From the NCBI GenBank assembly GCA_964608765.1, contig CAZSPD010000001.1:147223-211222 (forward strand): a stretch of 64,000 nucleotides of DNA, written 5' to 3'. The translations under genes and the position numbers were made by a program. The notes beneath the pieces are model-generated. The model was given only the letters and a program-made list of their open reading frames with translations. It made no database searches and was not told the DNA's origin. The DNA comes from Candidatus Woesearchaeota archaeon (lineage in GTDB: Archaea; Nanobdellota; Nanobdellia; Pacearchaeales; GW2011-AR1). Shown here in pieces: positions 20,215-63,353 of this stretch; position 1 is the stretch's first letter, and each line of letters starts with the position of its first letter.

Positions 20215-21492
20215 TTATTTAAATTTTAAATCACTAATATACATTTCTTTTATTATTTTACTATTTTTAATTTTCCATTTCTCTAAAAACTCTTTTAATC
20301 CAAGAGTTACTTTTTCACGAGCATAAAGTCTGTTTTCTTTTTCATATATTATTTTATGCTCTTTTATGAATTTTTTACAATTTTCTTTATCATCATTATA
20401 AGGCCCAGAGTATATTATTTCCTTCTTTTTTTCAGTAACAAAAAAATACTGTGCTACTTCCCCTTTTCCATATTCAAATCCTTTCTTGCTTATTATAAAA
20501 AACACACCTATTTCTTTACCTAAATAATTAAAGAATTTTAAGAGCTTACTACCTGCAATATCCCCTTCAGGTTTATTTGTTTTAGCTTCTATTAAGATAA
20601 ATTCTTTTCCTCTTTTAATTGAAGATTCCCTTATTTTTTCAATATCTTCTTTTTTTACTTCAAAATTTTTTATAGAAGGTTTTTTTATAAACTCAATACA
20701 AGATTTTTGAAATTTTTCAAAAGTTTCTTTACTTAATGCAGCTAAAACATTTCTTTGTTTATAAGTAGGATCAATTAAAATAACAGGAGAATTTAATTTT
20801 GAAGTATTTAAATCAATTAAAATATCTTTTTTATTTTTATACTGTTTTTCAATATCAATCAAAAGTTTATCTTTTCCCACTTTAGTCATAGCTTGAATGA
20901 ATTTTTCAAATCCCTTGTAATAATAAACAAGTAATTCTAAGGAATACCCTGAAAAACCATGAATATAAGATTCTGCACCATAGCATTTATTAGCATAGCA
21001 AAATGATTTTGCTATTTTTATATCATCTAATATTTTTTTATCTTTTATTTTTTTATTTACATATTTCACATGAAGATAAGATAAGTCAGTTATATTTTCA
21101 TGTTCTTTAGAACTATTTACTTTTTTAACAGGTATTAGTTCTATAAAGAAATTTTCATTAATATCTATTCTAAAATAATCTCTTGAGCCGTGTATAACAG
21201 AATGCTTGTATGTTCCTCCAATAAGTTTCTCAGTTAATTTAGAAATTTCATTGTTTTTGTATTTTTTATCATACCTCACAAACACATCAACATCATATTT
21301 GTCTTTTTTTATTACTGTTCCTTTTGCAAAACTCCCTCCAATAAATATTTCAGCATCTATATTTGATTTTTTTATATTTTTTTTAAGTGTCTCGCAAAAT
21401 AAATTAACTTCTTTTTTTATTTCTTTTAACTCTTTTTCAGAAGGGTTGCATTTATCGAGGACTTCCTTAAGAATCTTTTCGTTTTTTCTCAT
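20215..21492 (-). CDS. cca: Archaeal class I CCA-adding enzyme (tRNA nucleotidyltransferase)
   Basis: 425 aa. IGGSFAKGTVIKKDKYDVDVFV pol-beta NTase motif and archaeal CCA-like architecture. Confidence 0.85.
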   Translation of the reverse strand: MRKNEKILKEVLDKCNPSEKELKEIKKEVNLFCETLKKNIKKSNIDAEIFIGGSFAKGTVIKKDKYDVDVFVRYDKKYKNNEISKLTEKLIGGTYKHSVIHGSRDYFRIDINENFFIELIPVKKVNSSKEHENITDLSYLHVKYVNKKIKDKKILDDIKIAKSFCYANKCYGAESYIHGFSGYSLELLVYYYKGFEKFIQAMTKVGKDKLLIDIEKQYKNKKDILIDLNTSKLNSPVILIDPTYKQRNVLAALSKETFEKFQKSCIEFIKKPSIKNFEVKKEDIEKIRESSIKRGKEFILIEAKTNKPEGDIAGSKLLKFFNYLGKEIGVFFIISKKGFEYGKGEVAQYFFVTEKKKEIIYSGPYNDDKENCKKFIKEHKIIYEKENRLYAREKVTLGLKEFLEKWKIKNSKIIKEMYISDLKFK

Positions 21493-21892
21493 AAGGTTTT
21501 TGTATCTCCTTTAACTCTTTTACACTTTTATTGAGAGTAGAAGCTAAATCAATTATATATTTTCCTTCTTCAAGTTTGTAGATTAGGGGTCTTTTTTTAT
21601 TAAATACATTAACAATGTCTATTTCAAATTTACCTTCACCCACAACTCTAACAGACTCTAAATCAAGTATCACAGGTGTTTCTTCATCTGTAATTCCAAC
21701 TATTTCCCTTATATCCTTTTCAATAACAGATTTTTCTTTTTCAGGTATTTCAACTATCTTATTTTTTATTTCTTCAAGTTGTTCTTGCTTTATATAAAAG
21801 AAAAACCTTCCACCACAATTACTACATCCATCTAATAATTCTTTACTTCCCAAAGGTATTATCTTAGAACATTTAACACACTGATGTGGCAT
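21467..21892 (-). CDS. Zn-ribbon protein, DUF2072/OapC-like
   Basis: MPHQCVKCSKIIPLGSKELLDGCSNCGGRFFFYIK resembles the N-terminus I recall for the archaeal Zn-ribbon-containing protein family that accompanies an Era-like GTPase and DUF2073. TATA-like box about 30 nt upstream. Confidence 0.6.
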   Translation of the reverse strand: MPHQCVKCSKIIPLGSKELLDGCSNCGGRFFFYIKQEQLEEIKNKIVEIPEKEKSVIEKDIREIVGITDEETPVILDLESVRVVGEGKFEIDIVNVFNKKRPLIYKLEEGKYIIDLASTLNKSVKELKEIQKPYEKKRKDS

Positions 21893-21945
21893 TTTAAATT
21901 ACATTTCATAAAATCAATGCAAGTTTATAAAATTAATGAATTCAA

Positions 21946-22605
21946 CTAAGAAACTCTTTTAATCTCTCCAAGAATCTCTTTTAACACACCTTTTAATCCA
22001 TTTTTGTTAGAGAACTTATTTTCTAATGAGGATAATGTGTAAAATACACAATAAAATAAGAATTTATTATAATCCTCAAATTTTTTTAGTCTATCTAATA
22101 TCTCTGAGGATAATTTTCTGTTAAAATAAATAGTTTCCATATAAAAATATGCAAAATCTCTTTCAGGGTAAGAATATCCAGAATGTTCAAAATCGATTAA
22201 CCCCAATTTATCTTTTTCTATAAATATATTCTGAGGCCTAAAGTCTCCATGAACTAATAACCCCTCGTTTCCTTTTACACTGTATAATATAGGAGGAGGT
22301 ATTTCTTTTAAATTATTCTTAATATATTCTATTTTAGGATATTCATTTAGCATCCCTTTTTTTAAAGGAAGTTTTTTAAAAAGTCTTTCAACATCATAAA
22401 TATTCCATTTTTTTAATTCTTTTTCAAGAAAAGTTCCATTTACTTTTTCTATTTTTAATACTAAATTATCTTTATTTTCAGATAAAATTTCTGGAACAAT
22501 AAAATTCTCTTTAAAGTAATCCCTATATTTTAATTCATTTTCATATTTTTTAATGTCCGAGAATCTCTTTTCTATGTGTGAATCATATATTTTTACTTTT
22601 TTCAT
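21946..22605 (-). CDS. APH/choline-kinase-fold phosphotransferase
   Basis: 219 aa. Catalytic loop LVHGDFRPQNIFI and LIDFEHSGY (HGDxxxxN / DFE). Start overlaps the rSAM gene end by 23 nt. Confidence 0.7.
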   Translation of the reverse strand: MKKVKIYDSHIEKRFSDIKKYENELKYRDYFKENFIVPEILSENKDNLVLKIEKVNGTFLEKELKKWNIYDVERLFKKLPLKKGMLNEYPKIEYIKNNLKEIPPPILYSVKGNEGLLVHGDFRPQNIFIEKDKLGLIDFEHSGYSYPERDFAYFYMETIYFNRKLSSEILDRLKKFEDYNKFLFYCVFYTLSSLENKFSNKNGLKGVLKEILGEIKRVS

Positions 22606-24499
22606 TTTTTAAATCAAAGTAATCTTTAAAAATATCAACTAACCACCCATTATCTAATTCTTCAAAATAATCCTGATTAGCATAGAAAGATATCGCTCCT
22701 CTTATTCCTAAAGAATATATTGGCTTAATATCAGAATAATAACTATCTCCAATATAAACTAATTCCTCAGGTTTTATATTTATTTCATTAAAAAATTCTT
22801 TAAAATACTCTAAAGAGGGTTTTTTAAATTTCTTAGATTCAAAGATATCCTCAAAAAGATTTAAATTTATTTTTTTTTCTTTTAATTCAGTAATTATACT
22901 CTCTTTTTTATTTCTAGATAAGATATATACCGGTAGATTATACTTATTTTTAATTTCATTTAATTGATTTATTAAGGGTTTATTTATTTTTGAGTTTTCT
23001 TTCCATTTTTTTAAATATAGATATATCATATCATTTACTTTTTCAGGTTTATTTAACTCCTCTGAGATTTTATTAAATATCTCCCTTATATCATAAAAAT
23101 CTTGTTTTTCTATCTCTTCCATATACCCGTATTTTTTAGCTACAAAATTAATTGCTTCATAAGTAGGTTCACGAGAGATTATTGTTCCATCATAATCTAT
23201 TGCTATTGCTTTTGGAGGGCTCAAATATAAATCTTTTCCAAATTCTTCAATAAGTAAACTCAAAAAAGGATACATTCTACTATCTGGTGAATCTAAACTA
23301 CCTTCAGTTAATTCAGAATAATAAGGGCAACTATTTCCGCATATTAGAATAAATGGGCATTTTTTATTTACACAGTACTCTTTATTTAGGGGGGATAAGA
23401 GGTTCCATTTCTTAAAAGTTTCTCCTCCTTTAAAATCCAGATTATCTATATTATAATCAAAATATTTTTTTGTACCTGAAAATCCATGGCAAGGACCCAC
23501 TAATCCCGTGGGGTGTACTACTATTTGATTTCCACACGCTCCGCAGTCTTTAAGATAAGGTTTTTCATTAATTATATATTTTAATCTTCTTAAGATTCTA
23601 TCCTCATAGATTTTTTTTCTCCTTAATATTCTATAAGAATTATAAAGTTGAAAAGCACAATATTCTGAATCTACAAATAATTTGTTTCCCTTAATATTTT
23701 CCAAAGGTAAGTTAAATCCAATTGATTTCACTTTTTTGAACTTTTTTGAAATCCATTTAGATATTGAAGGTAAGTAATCTATATTGTGGCTATTGATTGT
23801 AATAGAAAAAGAAACAATTACTCCATCAGAGAGATATTTTTCTATATTCCCTATAACTTCTTTAGATGTGCCTAAATTACTATGGTTTATTCTAGTTTTA
23901 TCATTAATTTTATTAAACCCATCAATAGAAACAGACACTATTACATTATTATCCTTAAAAACATTAGACAGTTCTTTATCATAGATAGATCCATTAGTGT
24001 TTATTCCAATATGTGTATCTTTGGATAATTCCCTTATTTTAGTTATACACTTAATTAAAACATCTTTATTCAATAAAGGTTCTCCACCATAGAATATTAT
24101 CCTTTTTTCATTAGATTTGGAATTATTAAAAAAATAATCAATTGCTTTATTTGCATTTTCCCAAGTTAAAACATTTCTTTCTTTACTTTTATAATTTCCT
24201 TCAATAAAGCAATAAGGGCATTTAAAATTACAATTATCTGTTAAAAGAAGGTACATTAAACTCAATTCTTGTTCTGTATTATTAATTATTTTCTTATAGT
24301 GCTCTATAAATTTATTTTCATAATCATTCTCAACAAGTATTCTATTTTCAGATAAATAAGGACTTTTATTTATTCCTTTTTTTATATCTTCAAGATTAGA
24401 ATTACTAAATAAAAAAAACCTGTGTTTATAGGGGGAATAAACTATTGAGTAATCAAGATATTTTCTAATATATAAAAAAGGATTTAATATCTTTTTCAT
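22583..24499 (-). CDS. Radical SAM/SPASM peptide-maturase-like enzyme fused to a C-terminal HAD-superfamily domain
   Basis: 638 aa. CNFKCPYC (Cx3Cx2C) after a leader of about 90 aa. SPASM-type CGNQIVVHPTGLVGPC and CVNKKCPFILICGNSC. HAD motifs AIDYDGT, ILSRN, KKPS and GDSYYSD. Confidence 0.85.
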   Translation of the reverse strand: MKKILNPFLYIRKYLDYSIVYSPYKHRFFLFSNSNLEDIKKGINKSPYLSENRILVENDYENKFIEHYKKIINNTEQELSLMYLLLTDNCNFKCPYCFIEGNYKSKERNVLTWENANKAIDYFFNNSKSNEKRIIFYGGEPLLNKDVLIKCITKIRELSKDTHIGINTNGSIYDKELSNVFKDNNVIVSVSIDGFNKINDKTRINHSNLGTSKEVIGNIEKYLSDGVIVSFSITINSHNIDYLPSISKWISKKFKKVKSIGFNLPLENIKGNKLFVDSEYCAFQLYNSYRILRRKKIYEDRILRRLKYIINEKPYLKDCGACGNQIVVHPTGLVGPCHGFSGTKKYFDYNIDNLDFKGGETFKKWNLLSPLNKEYCVNKKCPFILICGNSCPYYSELTEGSLDSPDSRMYPFLSLLIEEFGKDLYLSPPKAIAIDYDGTIISREPTYEAINFVAKKYGYMEEIEKQDFYDIREIFNKISEELNKPEKVNDMIYLYLKKWKENSKINKPLINQLNEIKNKYNLPVYILSRNKKESIITELKEKKINLNLFEDIFESKKFKKPSLEYFKEFFNEINIKPEELVYIGDSYYSDIKPIYSLGIRGAISFYANQDYFEELDNGWLVDIFKDYFDLKNEKSKNI

Positions 24500-24514: not shown

Positions 24515-24721
24515 TTAAATCCAATCTTCTATAGGAACTGTGCTTACTCTATCGTCAATAGTGCAACTTCCACAGTTACATATTCCACAACTTCCACAAG
24601 AACAATCGCTTCCACCCCCACAAAGGGAGCACATTGCAACAATACTATCTTTATGTATTAAGTTGATATCCCCATAAAGTTCTATTTTTTTAACTGCGTT
24701 ATAATTTGGATTATACTCCAT
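24515..24721 (-). CDS. Cys-rich 68-aa peptide, candidate RiPP precursor
   Basis: MEYNPNYNAVKKIELYGDINLIHKDSIVAM-CSLCGGGSDCSCGSCGICNCGSC-TIDDRVSTVPIEDWI. Stop is 15 nt before the rSAM start. Has its own TATA-like box. Confidence 0.7.
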   Translation of the reverse strand: MEYNPNYNAVKKIELYGDINLIHKDSIVAMCSLCGGGSDCSCGSCGICNCGSCTIDDRVSTVPIEDWI

Positions 24722-24743
24722 AGGAAACTCACATATTCAAACT

Positions 24744-24753
24744 ATTTAAATAT
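24744..24753 (-). promoter_or_regulatory. TATA-like box upstream of the Cys-rich peptide gene
   Basis: TATTTAAATA lies 23 nt upstream of the ATG at 24721, in the 69-nt gap after the DUF2073-like gene. Confidence 0.35.
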
Positions 24754-24790
24754 TATTATAAAATTAATGATGAGTTTAATCTAGTGTATT

Positions 24791-25198
24791 TTACTTATTT
24801 AATAATAACTCAATCTTTTTAGGATTTCTTTTAATTTCCTTAACTATTGTTGCAGGTCCTATTATTGTTATTGCACCTAAATCTCCTTTACTTAGTGCTT
24901 TTATTAATCCGCTTCTCATCTTATCTAATATACTCATCTCATTACTTCCACTAATTACAGCGAGTTCTATGCCTCTAAATCCTTTAATATGCCCTATCAT
25001 AGCCATTGTATCTCCTATTAATCTTGCTTCTTCTTCTGATTTAAGTCTTCCCTGAATAAATAAAATATTATTTCCAAGAACAATATTAAGGATTTTTTTT
25101 ATTCTTTCATGACTATTTAAATCCCTTATTTCAGAATAAGGAATAAACTGCATTGAAAATCCTTTTATTTTCCCTAATTTTTTATCCCTCTTTGCCAT
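24791..25198 (-). CDS. DUF2073/OapB-like conserved archaeal protein
   Basis: 135 aa. ERIKKILNIVLGNNILFIQGRLKSEEEARLIGDTMAMI...FRGIELAV matches my recollection of the DUF2073 pattern. Lies directly downstream of the GTPase. Confidence 0.55.
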   Translation of the reverse strand: MAKRDKKLGKIKGFSMQFIPYSEIRDLNSHERIKKILNIVLGNNILFIQGRLKSEEEARLIGDTMAMIGHIKGFRGIELAVISGSNEMSILDKMRSGLIKALSKGDLGAITIIGPATIVKEIKRNPKKIELLLNK

Positions 25199-25219: not shown

Positions 25220-25861
25220 TTAAATGCTTTTTGCTAATTTAAATATTGATTCGTAAAATTCTTCAAAGTTTTCACCACTCTTAGCACTTACACCCACAAC
25301 ATCATATTCTGGAAAAGCTGCTTCTATTTTTTTTAAATCTGCTTTCTTTAAATCTACTTTATTTCCAACAATAAGAACAGGTATTTTTCTTGCAACTAAA
25401 TTACCTACTATTGTTATATTTACTTGATTATATGGGTTTTCTGATGAGTCTAAAACTATTACAACAACATCCATATCATCAAGCCACTTTATGCTTTCAA
25501 TAACACCTTGTGTTGCTTCTTTAGCTCTTTCTTTTGCTTCTTTTTTCTTCATATTATATTTTAAGAAATCTTCATAATCTATTTTTGTAGCTATTCCTGG
25601 AGTGTCTATCATTTTAAAAGTTAAAGATTTACCTTTATACTTTATTTCTACTTTTTCTTTAAATTGAATATTTCTAGTTTCATGAGGGACTTTACTTACT
25701 GTTCCAATTTCTTGTCCTGTAAAATCTTTACAAATCCTATTTGCTAAACTTGTTTTACCTGCATTTGGAGGGCCATAAAATCCTAGTTTGATTTCCCTTC
25801 TATTTTTAAATAAATTATTAAATATTTTTTTAAAAAAATTCTTGAATACTTTTATCGCCAT
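25220..25861 (-). CDS. Era-like small GTPase (OapA-like)
   Basis: G1 GPPNAGKT, G3 DTPG, G4 NKVD, G5 SAK. N-terminal amphipathic/basic segment. Confidence 0.8.
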   Translation of the reverse strand: MAIKVFKNFFKKIFNNLFKNRREIKLGFYGPPNAGKTSLANRICKDFTGQEIGTVSKVPHETRNIQFKEKVEIKYKGKSLTFKMIDTPGIATKIDYEDFLKYNMKKKEAKERAKEATQGVIESIKWLDDMDVVVIVLDSSENPYNQVNITIVGNLVARKIPVLIVGNKVDLKKADLKKIEAAFPEYDVVGVSAKSGENFEEFYESIFKLAKSI

Positions 25862-25901: not shown

Positions 25902-27371
25902 TTATTTTTTAAGTGAACTTTTTTTCACTTCTTTTTTTGGTTCTTGAGAGCCTATATTCATAGGGCTTCCAACAATTCCTTTTATTTTCTTATTTTCATA
26001 CTTCCTCATAGCATAATTTATTTGTTCCCTAGTCCATCCTGCCTTTTTAAGATTCTTTTCAACAGTTTCCCTAGGAATATTTTTTATTTTTGAATCGTGT
26101 ATATAAACCATTATATTATACATATTATTTTTTGTTTTAAACAAATATGTTTCATATTTTCTAATATACCATCTCTGGACTAAAATATAAGTTATGGCAA
26201 ATATTAAGAGCAGTAAAAAGATAACTAAAATAAACCACAACCATCTATTTTGAGCTTTCCATCTTTCATATTGTCCACTATCAACAGGAGTTAATTTATC
26301 AATATCTGGAGAAATAAACACAGGGACACTAAAGAAATCAATATTTGATTTAGTTGCAAATACAAATTTATTAGAAATTTCATTTAAGACTAAATAAAAG
26401 TAACCTTCTCCTGAATAAACTCTAGAAATATTATCAAATACATTGTCTCCAAGGTCTTTAATTATTGCATAAGGAGCAGAATTATAATTCTCTGTTTTTC
26501 TAGATGAAAAATCAAATATGTTGAGGATTTCTATTGTTTTATTTTCATAAGTTATCTCTATTTTTTTAGATTCTATAGTTGTTACAATATTTTGATTATT
26601 CCATAAAAAAATAGCATCTAAATAGTTTTCTCTATTTCCTCTAAAATCAATTCTACTTAAATCTGCAAGAACTGAAAGATCTATTGACTCTCTTTCAGGA
26701 TAATATCTCATAGGCTGAGAGTAGGACATTAAGTAGAAGTTTGTAGGAAGATTTATTCTATTTATACTTTCTAAAATTTCTTCTTGTGATTCAAGTTGCT
26801 GCTCTAAATATTTATTTTCAATAGATTTTAATTCCAATTCAATTGATTCTATATTTAGGTATTTATTTAAAATACTTTGAGTGTAGATATCATATGTCTC
26901 TATTTTTGATTTAGAGGCATTTAGAAGAGCTTTTTTCTTTTCTAATGCATAATCTATTTCCCCCTTAATTAAAGCCACTTTAAACTCTTTTTCAAATATT
27001 TTTTTACCATCTAATTCAATGTAATAATCAAACACTTTTTCTGATGAAGACATAATAATTCCTGTTTCATTAAAACTAAGAATTTGAGGTGCAGAATCTA
27101 TAGAAGTATTTGTGATATCTGAAAACTTCCCCTCATATTCTATATTTCTCCCTAAAAGTTCATTTAATGAAACCTCATTTCCAAGAGAATCTATAAACAC
27201 TGATTCTAAACTTTGATTTAAGAAACTTATATTTAAATCTAATTTAAGTGTTTCAGAGGGAGAATAGTTACTAACTATTAAACTTCCTTCTTTATAGTAT
27301 TCAAATGAAGCAGAGGCAATTCCTATAAATACTATGCTAAATAATAAGATAAATACACTTTTACACCTCAT
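25902..27371 (-). CDS. Type I membrane glycoprotein-like surface protein with a small cytosolic tail domain
   Basis: 489 aa. Signal peptide (VFILLFSIVFIGIASA), many NxS/T sequons, TM (WLWFILVIFLLLLIFAITYILV). Tail carries KKAGWTREQINYAMRKY. Confidence 0.6.
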   Translation of the reverse strand: MRCKSVFILLFSIVFIGIASASFEYYKEGSLIVSNYSPSETLKLDLNISFLNQSLESVFIDSLGNEVSLNELLGRNIEYEGKFSDITNTSIDSAPQILSFNETGIIMSSSEKVFDYYIELDGKKIFEKEFKVALIKGEIDYALEKKKALLNASKSKIETYDIYTQSILNKYLNIESIELELKSIENKYLEQQLESQEEILESINRINLPTNFYLMSYSQPMRYYPERESIDLSVLADLSRIDFRGNRENYLDAIFLWNNQNIVTTIESKKIEITYENKTIEILNIFDFSSRKTENYNSAPYAIIKDLGDNVFDNISRVYSGEGYFYLVLNEISNKFVFATKSNIDFFSVPVFISPDIDKLTPVDSGQYERWKAQNRWLWFILVIFLLLLIFAITYILVQRWYIRKYETYLFKTKNNMYNIMVYIHDSKIKNIPRETVEKNLKKAGWTREQINYAMRKYENKKIKGIVGSPMNIGSQEPKKEVKKSSLKK

Positions 27372-27427: not shown

Positions 27428-30400
27428 TTATTTTCTTTTTTTAACTTTTTTAGAAACCACTACTTTTTTATCTTTTCTACTTAAAGTATAAGCAATGTAT
27501 ATTAACCCAATTAATGCAACAGCAAATGCAACGTGATTTACACTAAAGAATGGAAGTTCTACTGTAGCAGGACAGTAAATTAAATTAGAGCGCTCAGTAA
27601 TGCATTCATTGTATTTATCAATAGAACCGAGTCTCCAAACACCAGTATTATCTAAGAAAAATGCTGTATCAGGTAACCCTAGTGAAGAACGTGTATCTTC
27701 AGTGAATTGATTTAAAGGATCCCACCCCATTACACCTCTAATTCCAACTGTTATTTGAGAAACACCTTCTGAACAACTATCATCTGTTGTAGGTTCATAA
27801 ACACACCATCCTGGATTAGGATAATTAATTGTTCCTCCACCATTATCATCTCCTCTACAATTTTCTAAATTATAAGTACACTGATATTGATGCCCTTGAG
27901 GATAACAACTTACTGTTCCTGATGTGAATTCATCAAAGTGACTACATTCACTATCACTTAATTGTAATTCATTACTATCACATGTTTCTCCAAGTTCAAC
28001 TATTCCATTCCCACACACTGAACCAGGAGATATAAAATGGCAGTTAGTATCGCAATTTCCTTCTCCAGGAGGTTCACACTCTTCGTTTGATTCATATTCA
28101 ACTACTCCATTCCCACAGTGATCTAATGGACCTTGACAATTACTAAAATTATAAGTACATTCAAGAAGATGTCCTTGAGGATAACAATTTACTGTTCCTG
28201 ATGTGAAATCATCAAAGTGACTACATTCACTATCACTTAATTGTAATTCATTACCATCACAAACTTCTCCACGTTCAAGTATTCCATTTCCACATACAGG
28301 TGTTAAACTAGGAGGAACAATATAATTACAATCATCACCACAATTTCCTTCTCCAGGAGGTTCACACTCTTCCCCAGCATCTACAACACCATTTCCACAG
28401 TTAGATACTGGAGGATTTCCATCACAATAATCTATCTTAGGTATTGTGGTAGCCCTACATATATTACTAGCACTATTCCAAGTACATCCACACTCTGGAG
28501 CAATCATACATTTCATATTTGAGTCATAATAAGGTTCTTTTTCACAAGTAGGTTCATTTTCAGCTACTCTGTAGTATAAATCTCCATCATGATTACATTG
28601 ATATTCATCTGTGTAATCTGCACAACGTACTATACCTGGCCATTTTTTTTCAACTTCAATTGAGTCTGATTTTTCAGATATATCTAATCCTACAACATTT
28701 GCAATAAAGTAGTATTTAGCAGGTTCTCCATTACCTTCATATTCTGCTCTCCAAATTCCCATATTATTTGAACTACTGTAGGAGTTTATATTTTCTAGAT
28801 ATCCAGGGTTTTCTATTCTACTATCTCTTCCTCCCCCATTGTCTTTCCAGATTTCAAAGTTTATTCTTCTTCCATTACAATGTGGAGTAGCCTCTACAAA
28901 CATATTTGCATTATTTCCTTCTAATATTCTCAAAGTACTCCAATAAACATCAAGGATTTCACAAGTAACAGGACAAGGACCACAATCGCTTTCACAATTA
29001 TTACAATTTTCAGGACCATTACAAACACCATCCCCACACCATCCTCCTTGAACAGTAACTGAAGTACAAGATGCTGAACAATAATTACAAGTATCTCCAT
29101 ATAGAGCAGTACATGGAACACCATTTAAGGCAGCTCCATTATCACACTGTTCTCCAGGTTCTAAAATCCCATTTCCACAACTTGCTAATCTTGATACTCT
29201 TAATAATTGAGGGTCATTTACACCTGAATTTGAACTTGAATTTGTAACACCTGAAACAGTTGATCTAAAATAATATTCTGGAGGGTCAGTTTCAGGAACC
29301 CCTTCACTTTGCCACTCAGCATCCCACATTCCAGCAGCAGAGTTTCCACTTAGCGGGAATATTATTGGAACAGGATTTATTATCACATCATCATCTGCTC
29401 CAATTGTGTCTTTTTCTTTTATTTCAAAACTAATAGTTTTTCCTCCGCAATTTGTTCCAGCAATATTTAATAGTACTGGTGTTCCCTCAACTATTGGGCT
29501 TCCAACAGGAGTTGAATAATTCCAAGATAAAGAAGTTAAAACACAAGGAGGAATACATCCAGAAGTATTATAAGTACATCCACTAGTACATGTTACAGCA
29601 CCCAAAGTATATCCAGCACCCATTAAACTTGCACATGTTGCACCTCCTAAAGCAGTTCCATCACACTGCTCACCACTTTCTCTTACTCCATTTCCACATG
29701 TAGCTGTACAATCATTATCATTAACAGCATTACATCCTTGAGGACAACACCCATCATTGTTGATTCCACAACTTAAAGCAGGATAAGTACATGAGCCACT
29801 TACACACCTCCCAGGATTACATTGTCCAGGACTATTAGTGCAATGACTATCTCTAGTACATATTGTACAATCATTATCATCCCCTATATCACACCCTAAA
29901 GGACAACATCCATCATTGTTGATTCCACAACTTAAAGCAGGATTTGAACAAGTATTAGTTGCTAAATTACAAGTATCTGGACCAGTACAAACCTTATTAT
30001 CATTACATTGGGAATTAGAGGTACAGCAATTATTTATAAGAATATTGGCACATGTACCACTATTACAAATATCAGTTGTACACGGATTACCATCATCACA
30101 TGTTCCGCAATTTAAAGTACCTCCACATCCATCTGAAACTGTTCCACAATTTCTACCTAATGCTGAACATGTTGTTGGAACACAAACACAAGCTCCACCC
30201 GAGCAAGTTTGTCCTGACAAACAAGCTGTTGGAGTTCCCCAATTATAACATCCATTACTTCCTGAAACACATGTTTGAACATTATTTCCTGAACATCGTG
30301 TTGCACCTGGAGTACACTGATTATTACAACACTGACTAGTATCATATCCACACCCACTTACTCCAGGAGGATTACATCTTAAATTACCTCCATTAAAACC

Positions 30401-31012
30401 TAAACCAACACAAGTCTGCCCTCTTAATTGAGTACTTGTACAAGGAGACCCTGATGCTCCACAGTCACAATTCTCTCCATCTTCTACTATACTATTCCCA
30501 CAAACAGCAACAGAACTATCATTACAACATATTTTTGTTCCATAAGTACTACTAAATTGAGCTAAATGTGCATTTGTATTTGCACTTAAAGAAAGAACCT
30601 GAATAGGATAATTAGAAGGACAAGAAGTAGTTGTTACAGAAGTACACATAAATTTTCCAAAACACACATTTGTGGAGTAACCTGGTTCATTTTGGGTTTG
30701 AGCATGAGCATTTGTTGTTGCAGATAATTTTAAAATCTTATTAGTTGGATTAGAGGCAGGAGAACAAGTATGCATAGAAGCATTATCAGCAGCAGAGTAA
30801 TAAGTCATACCCACACAACATAAATAATAAGTGTATGTTCCTTGATTCCATAATGCTCCGTGAGCATTTGTTGAAGAAGATAATCTCATAACTCTATTAG
30901 CTTCAGGACAAGAAGTTGTAATTGAACAAGTTGTTGCTGAAATAAAACTTGATAATAATATTGTAAATGTAATTACTACAACAAAAAATATTAAACCTCT
31001 TTTGCTACTCAT
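27428..31012 (-). CDS. Giant Cys-rich repeat surface protein (1194 aa), C-terminally membrane anchored
   Basis: Signal peptide. Three LSxxTNAH repeats. Seven CGNGxxExGExC(D/E) repeats (Myxococcus cysteine-rich-repeat-like). Duplicated ALSCGINNDGCCP modules. C-terminal TM plus a Lys-rich tail. Confidence 0.8.
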   Translation of the reverse strand: MSSKRGLIFFVVVITFTILLSSFISATTCSITTSCPEANRVMRLSSSTNAHGALWNQGTYTYYLCCVGMTYYSAADNASMHTCSPASNPTNKILKLSATTNAHAQTQNEPGYSTNVCFGKFMCTSVTTTSCPSNYPIQVLSLSANTNAHLAQFSSTYGTKICCNDSSVAVCGNSIVEDGENCDCGASGSPCTSTQLRGQTCVGLGFNGGNLRCNPPGVSGCGYDTSQCCNNQCTPGATRCSGNNVQTCVSGSNGCYNWGTPTACLSGQTCSGGACVCVPTTCSALGRNCGTVSDGCGGTLNCGTCDDGNPCTTDICNSGTCANILINNCCTSNSQCNDNKVCTGPDTCNLATNTCSNPALSCGINNDGCCPLGCDIGDDNDCTICTRDSHCTNSPGQCNPGRCVSGSCTYPALSCGINNDGCCPQGCNAVNDNDCTATCGNGVRESGEQCDGTALGGATCASLMGAGYTLGAVTCTSGCTYNTSGCIPPCVLTSLSWNYSTPVGSPIVEGTPVLLNIAGTNCGGKTISFEIKEKDTIGADDDVIINPVPIIFPLSGNSAAGMWDAEWQSEGVPETDPPEYYFRSTVSGVTNSSSNSGVNDPQLLRVSRLASCGNGILEPGEQCDNGAALNGVPCTALYGDTCNYCSASCTSVTVQGGWCGDGVCNGPENCNNCESDCGPCPVTCEILDVYWSTLRILEGNNANMFVEATPHCNGRRINFEIWKDNGGGRDSRIENPGYLENINSYSSSNNMGIWRAEYEGNGEPAKYYFIANVVGLDISEKSDSIEVEKKWPGIVRCADYTDEYQCNHDGDLYYRVAENEPTCEKEPYYDSNMKCMIAPECGCTWNSASNICRATTIPKIDYCDGNPPVSNCGNGVVDAGEECEPPGEGNCGDDCNYIVPPSLTPVCGNGILERGEVCDGNELQLSDSECSHFDDFTSGTVNCYPQGHLLECTYNFSNCQGPLDHCGNGVVEYESNEECEPPGEGNCDTNCHFISPGSVCGNGIVELGETCDSNELQLSDSECSHFDEFTSGTVSCYPQGHQYQCTYNLENCRGDDNGGGTINYPNPGWCVYEPTTDDSCSEGVSQITVGIRGVMGWDPLNQFTEDTRSSLGLPDTAFFLDNTGVWRLGSIDKYNECITERSNLIYCPATVELPFFSVNHVAFAVALIGLIYIAYTLSRKDKKVVVSKKVKKRK

Positions 31013-63194: not shown

Positions 63195-63353
63195 TCCCTC
63201 CACCAAGATTCGAACTTGGGATCTTCCGGGTACTGCTTTTTATTTACAGATTCCTTCAGGAATGGCTTATCGTGCTTCATCCTAATCCAAAATGGAATGT
63301 CTGCACTAGACATAATCTACAGCCAGACGCTCTAACCACTGAGCTATGGAGGG
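63195..63353 (-). tRNA. tRNA-Tyr(GUA) with an intron of about 86 nt in the anticodon loop
   Basis: Hand-folded. C1:G72 acceptor CCCTCCA/TGGAGGG (archaeal Tyr identity pair). D arm GCTC-AGTGGTTA-GAGC. Anticodon stem TCTGG/CCGGA with CTGTAG. T arm CCAAG-TTCGAAT-CTTGG. Discriminator A followed by TTTT. Confidence 0.8.

Follow-up and report, generated by a model that had tools for sequence, protein, structure and literature searches.

Why does a DPANN archaeon, a member of a group thought to retain only needed genes, encode a 68-residue peptide with eight cysteines immediately in front of the gene of a radical S-adenosylmethionine (SAM) enzyme? The question is raised by a stretch of 64,000 nucleotides (nt) from the genome of Candidatus Woesearchaeota archaeon (assembly GCA_964608765.1, contig CAZSPD010000001.1, positions 147,223 to 211,222), referred to here as the window. 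The DPANN label comes from the names of the related metagenome-assembled genomes (MAG), which are Woesearchaeota, Nanoarchaeota and Micrarchaeia, and from archaeal marker genes in the window. The answer favored here, with some reserve, is that the peptide serves as precursor for a peptide made on ribosomes and modified after translation (RiPP). Its gene forms a cassette with those of a radical SAM/SPASM enzyme carrying a fused HAD phosphatase domain and of a kinase. The product would be crosslinked by thioethers, and a phosphate step would take part in its maturation.

The peptide gene and its conservation

The open reading frame (ORF) of the peptide, its regions and the box in front of it are the following.

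24515..24721, minus strand: candidate precursor peptide ORF, 68 amino acids (aa)
24632..24721, minus strand: leader, aa 1-30, Cys-free, with the L15-x-G17-x-I19 motif, V28 and M30 conserved in the alignments
24563..24631, minus strand: core, aa 31-53, CSLCGGGSDCSCGSCGICNCGSC, with 8 Cys, 5 Ser, 1 Asp and 1 Asn
24515..24562, minus strand: tail, aa 54-68 and stop, variable and acidic, with a conserved W-[IVFY] C-terminus
24743..24752, minus strand: TATA-like box TATTTAAATA, which ends 21 nt before the peptide ATG

This ORF had been pointed out in a sequence-only reading of the window, which made no database searches and proposed that the adjacent radical SAM/SPASM enzyme takes the peptide as its substrate. 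Most of its description is borne out. When the minus strand is read again, the translation is letter-for-letter identical and the Cys residues are found at positions 31, 34, 40, 42, 45, 48, 50 and 53, in the spacing that had been claimed. Residues 1-30 are Cys-free, the tail TIDDRVSTVPIEDWI is acidic (4 acidic and 1 basic residues), and the peptide stop (24515-24517) lies 15 nt ahead of the ATG of the 638-aa maturase gene at 24499. Two details require correction. The end coordinate given for the ORF, 24753, takes in the promoter-like box, and the ORF itself ends at 24721. The TATA-like TATTTAAATA is indeed present, at a distance of 21 nt from the ATG and not of 23 nt.

The position of the box TATTTAAATA suits an archaeal transcript with a short leader or none. 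Taken alone it is weak evidence, since the DNA has a guanine plus cytosine (GC) content of 25-29% and the motif is common: TTTAAATA has 41 occurrences in the window where 32.3 would be expected, and is not enriched. Five homologous loci (L082, L085, L092, L096 and L002) also contain TATA-like boxes, whose distance upstream of the peptide ATG is about 25-37 nt.

A short frame in an intergenic-looking position, beside a TATA-like motif that is common in the window, might have opened by chance in AT-rich DNA. This explanation is refuted. The 8 Cys in 23 residues represent the top Cys density among all window ORFs, and none of 200 block shuffles matches it (mean maximum 4.2, largest 7). The peptide also has homologues with E values down to 5e-16, an invariant core at saturated synonymous sites and a conserved place before the maturase gene.

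The peptide family is rare. A word-indexed search of 5.8 billion proteins returned ten homologues (E 5e-16 to 6e-8), and only nine clusters matched the peptide profile in an exhaustive search of 1.84 billion cluster representatives. Scanning metagenomes with the pattern DCSCGSCG gave one additional locus only. The scan of genome collections gave mostly distant bacterial radical SAM enzymes, and the relevant loci were only L001, L002 and the GNAT-fused L017. In all, about 20 distinct sequences are available, including ORFs recovered from the fetched loci. The viral contigs searched contained zero relatives, and nothing thus points to carriage of the cassette by viruses. The peptide has no Pfam or NCBIfam match (NCBIfam at E <= 0.1), and it therefore stays, as had been supposed, outside any described archaeal family; the literature searches likewise gave no description.

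All members have a common plan, composed of a short variable leader with L-x-G-x-I and a core around CSCGSCGxC[DNS]C, the motif that close and more distant members share. The close subfamily adds the variable tail with its W-[IVFY] end. In the 11 homologues of this subfamily that were aligned, the 24 residues M-CSLCGGGSDCSCGSCGICNCGSC show little or no variation. Synonymous differences in the 24 core codons are saturated (pS 0.33-1.08), with the protein fixed, as the proposed check for purifying selection called for. Several Ser positions have AGY codons in some members and TCN codons in others, which shows selection for Ser itself. The peptide ORF is a real gene under strong purifying selection as a protein. 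The core stays unchanged while the partner enzymes drift to about 50% identity, and the function of the product must therefore be tightly constrained.

The maturase, the kinase and their coupling to the peptide

The enzymes are encoded downstream of the peptide by two overlapping genes, whose domains are listed below.

22583..24499, minus strand: maturase gene, 638 aa, directly downstream of the peptide gene
24275..24499, minus strand: maturase aa 1-75, strand-plus-helix domain (strands at 3-32, then helices, in the AlphaFold2 model)
23585..24274, minus strand: maturase aa 76-305, radical SAM core, CX3CX2C at C90, C94 and C97 (Pfam PF04055, 3e-18)
23225..23584, minus strand: maturase aa 306-425, SPASM-type auxiliary-cluster domain, from profile alignment to the SPASM regions of CteB and anSME
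22586..23224, minus strand: maturase aa 426-638, fused HAD-IA phosphatase domain (Pfam HAD_2, 1.5e-11)
21946..22605, minus strand: minimal APH/choline-kinase-like kinase, 219 aa (Pfam APH, 2.6e-10), with a 23-nt overlap with the maturase end

The peptide gene is adjacent to the maturase gene and co-oriented with it, at a gap of 15 nt. The same arrangement is found elsewhere, and the maturase gene comes directly after the peptide gene in 11 of the 12 distinct peptide loci with readable downstream DNA (the window, L082-84, L085/86, L088, L090, L091/L001, L092, L002, L096/97, L099 and L100). The two genes are separated by 2-24 nt or overlap in the closer loci; in L001 and L091, the Micrarchaeia loci, the gap reaches up to 25 nt. 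The twelfth locus, L081, contains an intact peptide gene followed by a 107-aa ORF (L081 8001-8467), in which maturase residues 1-41 are fused in-frame to kinase residues 161-216. To judge from its sequence, this ORF is a deletion relic of the cassette. This co-occurrence and the selection on the peptide, the two tests that had been suggested for the substrate assignment, both support it at the level of sequence.

The kinase and the HAD domain accompany the maturase in every readable locus but one, L089, which is considered further below. The kinase gene directly follows the maturase gene in L082, L085, L090, L091, L092 and L001 (a fragment in the latter), whereas in L096 it follows a separate HAD gene. 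The operon of L096/L097, from a MAG labelled Nanoarchaeota, encodes the peptide, a radical SAM/SPASM protein of 440 aa with 37% identity to the window maturase, a HAD protein of 206 aa and the kinase, with overlapping genes. Since the HAD is separate there, HAD and kinase were in the system before the fusion arose, which is evidence of the 'Rosetta stone' type. The flanking genes vary by locus and include a transposase with a ribonucleotide reductase, a Cas12a locus, glycosyltransferases and an aldehyde:ferredoxin oxidoreductase. The genes around the trio are different in every locus, and the trio therefore moves as a unit. The peptide gene is thus coupled to the enzyme genes, and the kinase and the HAD domain are part of the system.

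Sister archaeal maturases are fused to a GNAT domain instead of the HAD (L094 678-2471, L095 824-2617 and L017 5642-7575). They have upstream Cys/Asp-rich peptides of their own (for example, ...CSGCFCDCGSGECDCSCDCQICDCGF) and no accompanying kinase. In L085 (10961-16755, MAG GCA_054039175.1) the cassette adjoins a Cas12a (Cpf1) gene with cas4, cas1 and cas2.

The neighboring gene had been correctly read as a radical SAM/SPASM enzyme; its C-terminal HAD phosphatase domain had not been mentioned. The AlphaFold2 model of the maturase, built from 19 homologues, has a pLDDT of 87.6 and a pTM of 0.87. In Foldseek searches the best match of the model is CteB (E 2.5e-18, TMt 0.73), with about 435 aligned columns that span approximately the whole target chain, followed by ChlB, anSME, TigE, SuiB and SkfB. 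The profile search of the PDB also places CteB first (1.5e-31, SPASM stretch included) and anSME next. The radical SAM/SPASM part is accordingly modeled with a CteB-like fold, and the first 75 residues are likely a leader-binding domain of the RiPP recognition element type. CteB is the SCIFF thioether synthase and installs Cys thioether crosslinks. The top NCBIfam matches of the enzyme are all peptide maturases: FibroRumin (2e-52), PapB (3e-43), CcpM and SCIFF.

The Cys residues of the radical SAM motif, C90, C94 and C97, are invariant in 19/19 maturase sequences. In the SPASM domain, every sequence has Cys 319, 337, 376, 381, 387 and 391, and 17/19 have C322. A CX3CX2C motif together with a SPASM domain of 7-8 Cys for auxiliary clusters characterizes the maturases of radical SAM/SPASM-modified Cys-rich RiPPs, and the window enzyme has both. 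An eighth SPASM Cys occurs in 11/19 homologues; it is replaced by Tyr in the window enzyme, which has 7 SPASM Cys only, as do 8/19 homologues. Such a number would fit an auxiliary cluster that has an open coordination site.

In the HAD domain, the residues of motifs I-IV (D435-x-D437, S/T528, K560 and D585/D590) are conserved in 19/19 sequences, and the catalytic set of the domain is intact. The AlphaFold2 model contains a four-helix C1 cap (helices 446-520). The score with the HAD-SF-IA-v1 model is 33.1 bits, above the cut-off of 23.3, which places the domain among the HAD-IA phosphatases. Its closest NCBIfam relatives are HAD-IA and CTE7/YjjG-like models, the PDB profile search indicates likeness to 3kzx and 2ah5, and the HAD part of the model matches HAD-IA phosphatases in Foldseek.

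The kinase alignment was built from neighbor genes in the fetched loci; the word-indexed search had given only 3 proteins. In its nine homologues K13, E24, H119-G-D121, N126, D138-x-E140 and D150 are all invariant. The PDB profile matches are led by choline kinase (1e-7) and methylthioribose kinase (2e-5). The NCBIfam matches are weak, with LxmK at E 0.003 (16.6 bits against a cut-off of 315) and LanKC at E 0.027. In sequence the kinase falls between small-molecule kinases and protein kinases. An AlphaFold2 model from the 3-sequence alignment had a pLDDT of 47.3 and was judged too poor for a fold search.

Known relatives and the role of the phosphate

FibroRumin is a computationally defined system, described in NCBIfam by TIGR04135 (a Cys-rich RiPP, cut-off 45 bits) and TIGR04136 (its radical SAM maturase, cut-off 400). 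It is the best-scoring model for the window maturase, at 178.6 bits and under the cut-off, and the archaeal peptides give no match to TIGR04135. Full-text literature searches for FibroRumin by name and for CSCGSCG gave no paper, nor any description of the archaeal system. Bacterial relatives of the maturase (29-33% identity, from bacteria of the Candidate Phyla Radiation (CPR), Bacteroides and a proteobacterium) have upstream Cys-rich peptides, two of which exceed the TIGR04135 cut-off (59.7 and 51.5 bits). The leaders of these FibroRumin-type bacterial peptides align with the archaeal leader profile (hhalign probability 85.8%, E 5e-6), and in both groups the first Cys is preceded, at a distance of about 10-14 residues, by a hydrophobic-x-G-x-hydrophobic motif. 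The CxCxxCxxCxC spacing is also present in both cores. On the other hand, the bacterial loci examined are without the HAD and the kinase, which the archaeal system adds, and only the close archaeal subfamily has the invariant 24-residue core and the W-[IVFY] C-terminus. The archaeal system is, on these alignments, a distant and differently equipped relative of an uncharacterized bacterial RiPP family and a member of no named family.

In CPR/Patescibacteria, whose loci carry it instead of the HAD and the kinase, an unrelated conserved protein of about 231-251 aa is encoded after the radical SAM maturase of a Cys-rich peptide (L004 7278-8021, L005 3634-4335, L006 2057-2752, L008 1949-2653 and L009 1840-2595). 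These proteins have similar N-termini and no Pfam match, and they may be accessory proteins of FibroRumin-type systems.

The nearest solved structure is that of CteB from the SCIFF system (PDB 5WGG and 5WHY), both by profile and by fold, and the match spans the N-terminal domain, the radical SAM core and the SPASM domain. SCIFF and the archaeal system are alike in their highly conserved Cys-rich core and in a locus without exporter or protease. However, the identity of CteB to the window maturase is about 18%, the window enzyme scores 95.9 bits with the SCIFF maturase model TIGR03974 (cut-off 425), and the six-Cys precursor model is unmatched. Furthermore, SCIFF/CteB is bacterial (Clostridia) and has neither HAD domain nor kinase.

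PapB/freyrasin (NF047865) is the second-best maturase model, with 148.3 bits against a cut-off of 340. PapB joins Cys to Asp. Candidates for PapB-like acceptors in the archaeal core would be the conserved Asp39 and the Asn/Asp/Ser at position 49, which is flanked by Cys, whereas a repeated CxxxD motif is not present in the archaeal peptide. The likeness to sactipeptides and ranthipeptides that had been noticed is one of resemblance and not of family membership.

Under the favored reading, the L-x-G-x-I motif of the leader (aa 15-19) would dock on the N-terminal domain of the maturase. The radical SAM core would then take a hydrogen atom from the peptide and, assisted by the SPASM auxiliary clusters, bond the Cys thiols of the nearly invariant peptide core to carbons of other residues, with Asp39 and Asn49 among the possible acceptors. 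The expected result is a compact, ranthipeptide/sactipeptide-like peptide crosslinked by thioethers. In the course of maturation, phosphate would be put on by the kinase and taken off by the HAD, the conserved Ser of the core being the most plausible sites. Like SCIFF, the product may have its role within the cell.

Several points weigh against this scheme. The scores with all named maturase families lie far under the cut-offs, so chemistry carried over from these families has to be taken with caution. The cassette contains no protease or exporter, which leaves leader removal and secretion unexplained. In L089 (4783-6669) a solitary 70%-identical radical SAM-HAD gene has NUDIX and Met-tRNA synthetase genes as its neighbors, without peptide or kinase in the 12.7 kb read; this maturase is either an orphan or has its partners elsewhere on its 32.8-kb contig. 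The HAD with its C1 cap resembles small-molecule phosphatases and nucleotidases, and the best PDB matches of the kinase are choline and methylthioribose kinases, so the pair may act on a small molecule. Finally, a kinase and a phosphatase acting on one residue look futile unless the phosphate is transient.

A very different view, and a very improbable one, is that the peptide is not a substrate at all. It would be a metallothionein-like protein, or an Fe-S or other metal-binding partner that serves the enzyme as electron, sulfur or metal donor or as chaperone. CxC/CxxC spacing with Ser and Gly is like that of metallothionein cores. Near-invariance of the core would be less usual for many RiPP cores than for a folded or functional unit, and in L081 the peptide gene is intact despite the deletion in the enzyme genes. 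Against this view, the peptide matches no metallothionein or ferredoxin family in Pfam or NCBIfam. It has a leader-core layout, its leader profile matches RiPP leaders, and the enzyme possesses a peptide-maturase N-terminal domain and a CteB-like fold. Stand-alone homologues, which had been named as a finding that would speak against a RiPP, are absent from the exhaustive profile search, and all readable peptide loci adjoin the maturase or its relic.

The evidence on the phosphate substrate points in two directions. The capped nucleotidase-like HAD and the choline/methylthioribose-kinase-like matches favor a small substrate. The fusion of the HAD to a peptide-binding enzyme and the swap for GNAT in sister clades favor a peptide substrate. 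Three options for the phosphate can be named, a transient modification of core Ser, a leaving group on Ser for β-carbon thioethers, and a small-molecule support function. The Ser/Thr content of the core was tried as a guide to the kinase target and rejected: kinase-associated and kinase-free loci are not separated by it.

In the biosynthesis of class V lanthipeptides, thioamitides and kintamdin, precursor Ser/Thr residues receive phosphate from APH-like kinases (PMC9415263). The archaeal cassette is similar to these systems in having an APH-like phosphotransferase beside a Cys/Ser-rich precursor. If the key chemistry of the archaeal RiPP were likewise driven by the kinase, the phosphorylated core Ser would be leaving groups and the thioethers would form at the Ser β-carbon, in a lanthionine-like manner. 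Two routes can be conceived, either elimination and then Cys addition, or abstraction of the α-hydrogen by the radical SAM enzyme with departure of the phosphate; the HAD would clear unreacted phosphoserines or act non-canonically. This explanation is unlikely, though several findings speak for it. The 5 conserved Ser are interleaved with the 8 Cys and are kept across codon switches, the kinase has its weak matches to LxmK and LanKC, Ser/Thr activation by APH-like enzymes is known from the other RiPPs just cited, and the link of kinase, HAD and radical SAM enzyme holds whether their genes are fused or separate. On the other hand, the HopA1-like (or OspF-like) lyase and the cyclase of class V lanthipeptide machinery are found in none of the archaeal cassettes, and the LxmK score lies far under its cut-off. 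The catalytic set of the HAD is that of a hydrolase or phosphotransferase and not of a lyase. Unlike in class V lanthipeptides, the partner of the archaeal kinase is a HAD hydrolase fused to the radical SAM enzyme, and the kinase is minimal. Sisters free of kinase and HAD (the GNAT fusions and the CPR bacteria) have equally Ser-rich cores.

A more specific proposal, which must be considered speculative and rather improbable, is a lyase-free radical route restricted to DPANN archaea. The kinase would phosphorylate core Ser, the radical SAM enzyme would form thioethers from Cys to the β-carbon of the phosphoserines, the phosphate being lost in a radical-triggered step that yields lanthionine-type links, and the HAD would proofread by taking off unused phosphates. 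The invariant product would have a housekeeping or host-interaction role and would not be an antibiotic.

Alternatively, the RiPP could be modified by the radical SAM part only, while kinase and HAD serve a small molecule as co-inherited support in a metabolically poor cell. They might dispose of or recycle a by-product of SAM cleavage, or act on a nucleotide or sugar phosphate. The capped HAD-IA domain is nearest to the CTE7, YjjG/YfnB nucleotidase, phosphoglycolate phosphatase and PpaX families, which agrees with such a function, as do the choline and methylthioribose kinase matches. It is nonetheless rather doubtful. The fusion of the HAD to a peptide-binding maturase and the parallel replacement by GNAT suggest a shared substrate, all scores are far under the family cut-offs, the 219-aa kinase is much smaller than the matched PDB kinases (about 310-420 aa), and the pair comes without an accompanying nucleosidase or isomerase.

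The favored reading, a thioether-crosslinked RiPP with a phosphate step, would place the system among the radical SAM/SPASM Cys-rich RiPP systems, to which it belongs by its sequence features. It is set apart there by its DPANN restriction, its invariant core and its phosphatase-kinase pair. No described counterpart has a SPASM maturase, a phosphatase and a kinase as an obligatory set, and this set points to a new peptide chemistry or to a new control of maturation. A 2025 survey gives radical SAM-type RiPP clusters as predicted in archaea, DPANN included, and lanthipeptides as the only archaeal clusters that had been functionally characterized (PMC12144867). The sequence-only reading had called a natural-product-like locus unexpected in what appeared to be a reduced genome; it is less so, as clusters of this type had already been predicted in bulk for DPANN in the same survey.

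The insertion site and its surroundings

The cassette comprises three genes in about 2.8 kb and is bordered in the window by the following features.

25220..25861: GTPase gene, which precedes oapB
24791..25198, minus strand: oapB (Pfam PF09846, 1e-14), upstream edge of the insertion site
24756..24770, minus strand: upstream copy of the 15-nt direct repeat TCATTAATTTTATAA (from a repeat search), with the TATA-like box TTTTATAA 34 nt before the peptide ATG
21925..21939, minus strand: downstream copy of the 15-nt direct repeat, after the kinase stop and ahead of oapC, whose ATG is 32 nt away
21467..21892, minus strand: oapC (Pfam PF09845, 2e-21), downstream edge of the insertion site

In L081 (9975-11394) the genes of the GTPase, oapB and oapC form a contiguous run, in which oapB and oapC are 2 nt apart. 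The window cassette is consequently regarded as an insertion into that operon. The L081 relic lies about 1.5 kb from its own GTPase-oapB-oapC genes. Both copies of the repeat contain the TATA-like TTTTATAA, and the exact repeat brackets the cassette. It could be a duplicated promoter or an insertion-site or target sequence. Exact 14-nt repeats also arise by chance in DNA such as that of the window, and the placement of the repeat is to be taken as suggestive. The GC content of the cassette (about 22-31%) equals that of its flanks, and composition therefore gives no evidence of recent transfer.

Further upstream, a 1194-aa ORF (27428-31012, minus strand) has a signal-like N-terminus, many Cys-rich modules in repeats (CGNG[IV]xExGExCD...) and a hydrophobic anchor at its C-terminus, and it is probably a large surface protein. 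The neighboring 489-aa ORF (25902-27371) is likewise hydrophobic-anchored. The sole Rfam match in the window is a tRNA of 159 nt (63195-63353, minus strand), long enough to contain an intron, which fits an archaeal genome.

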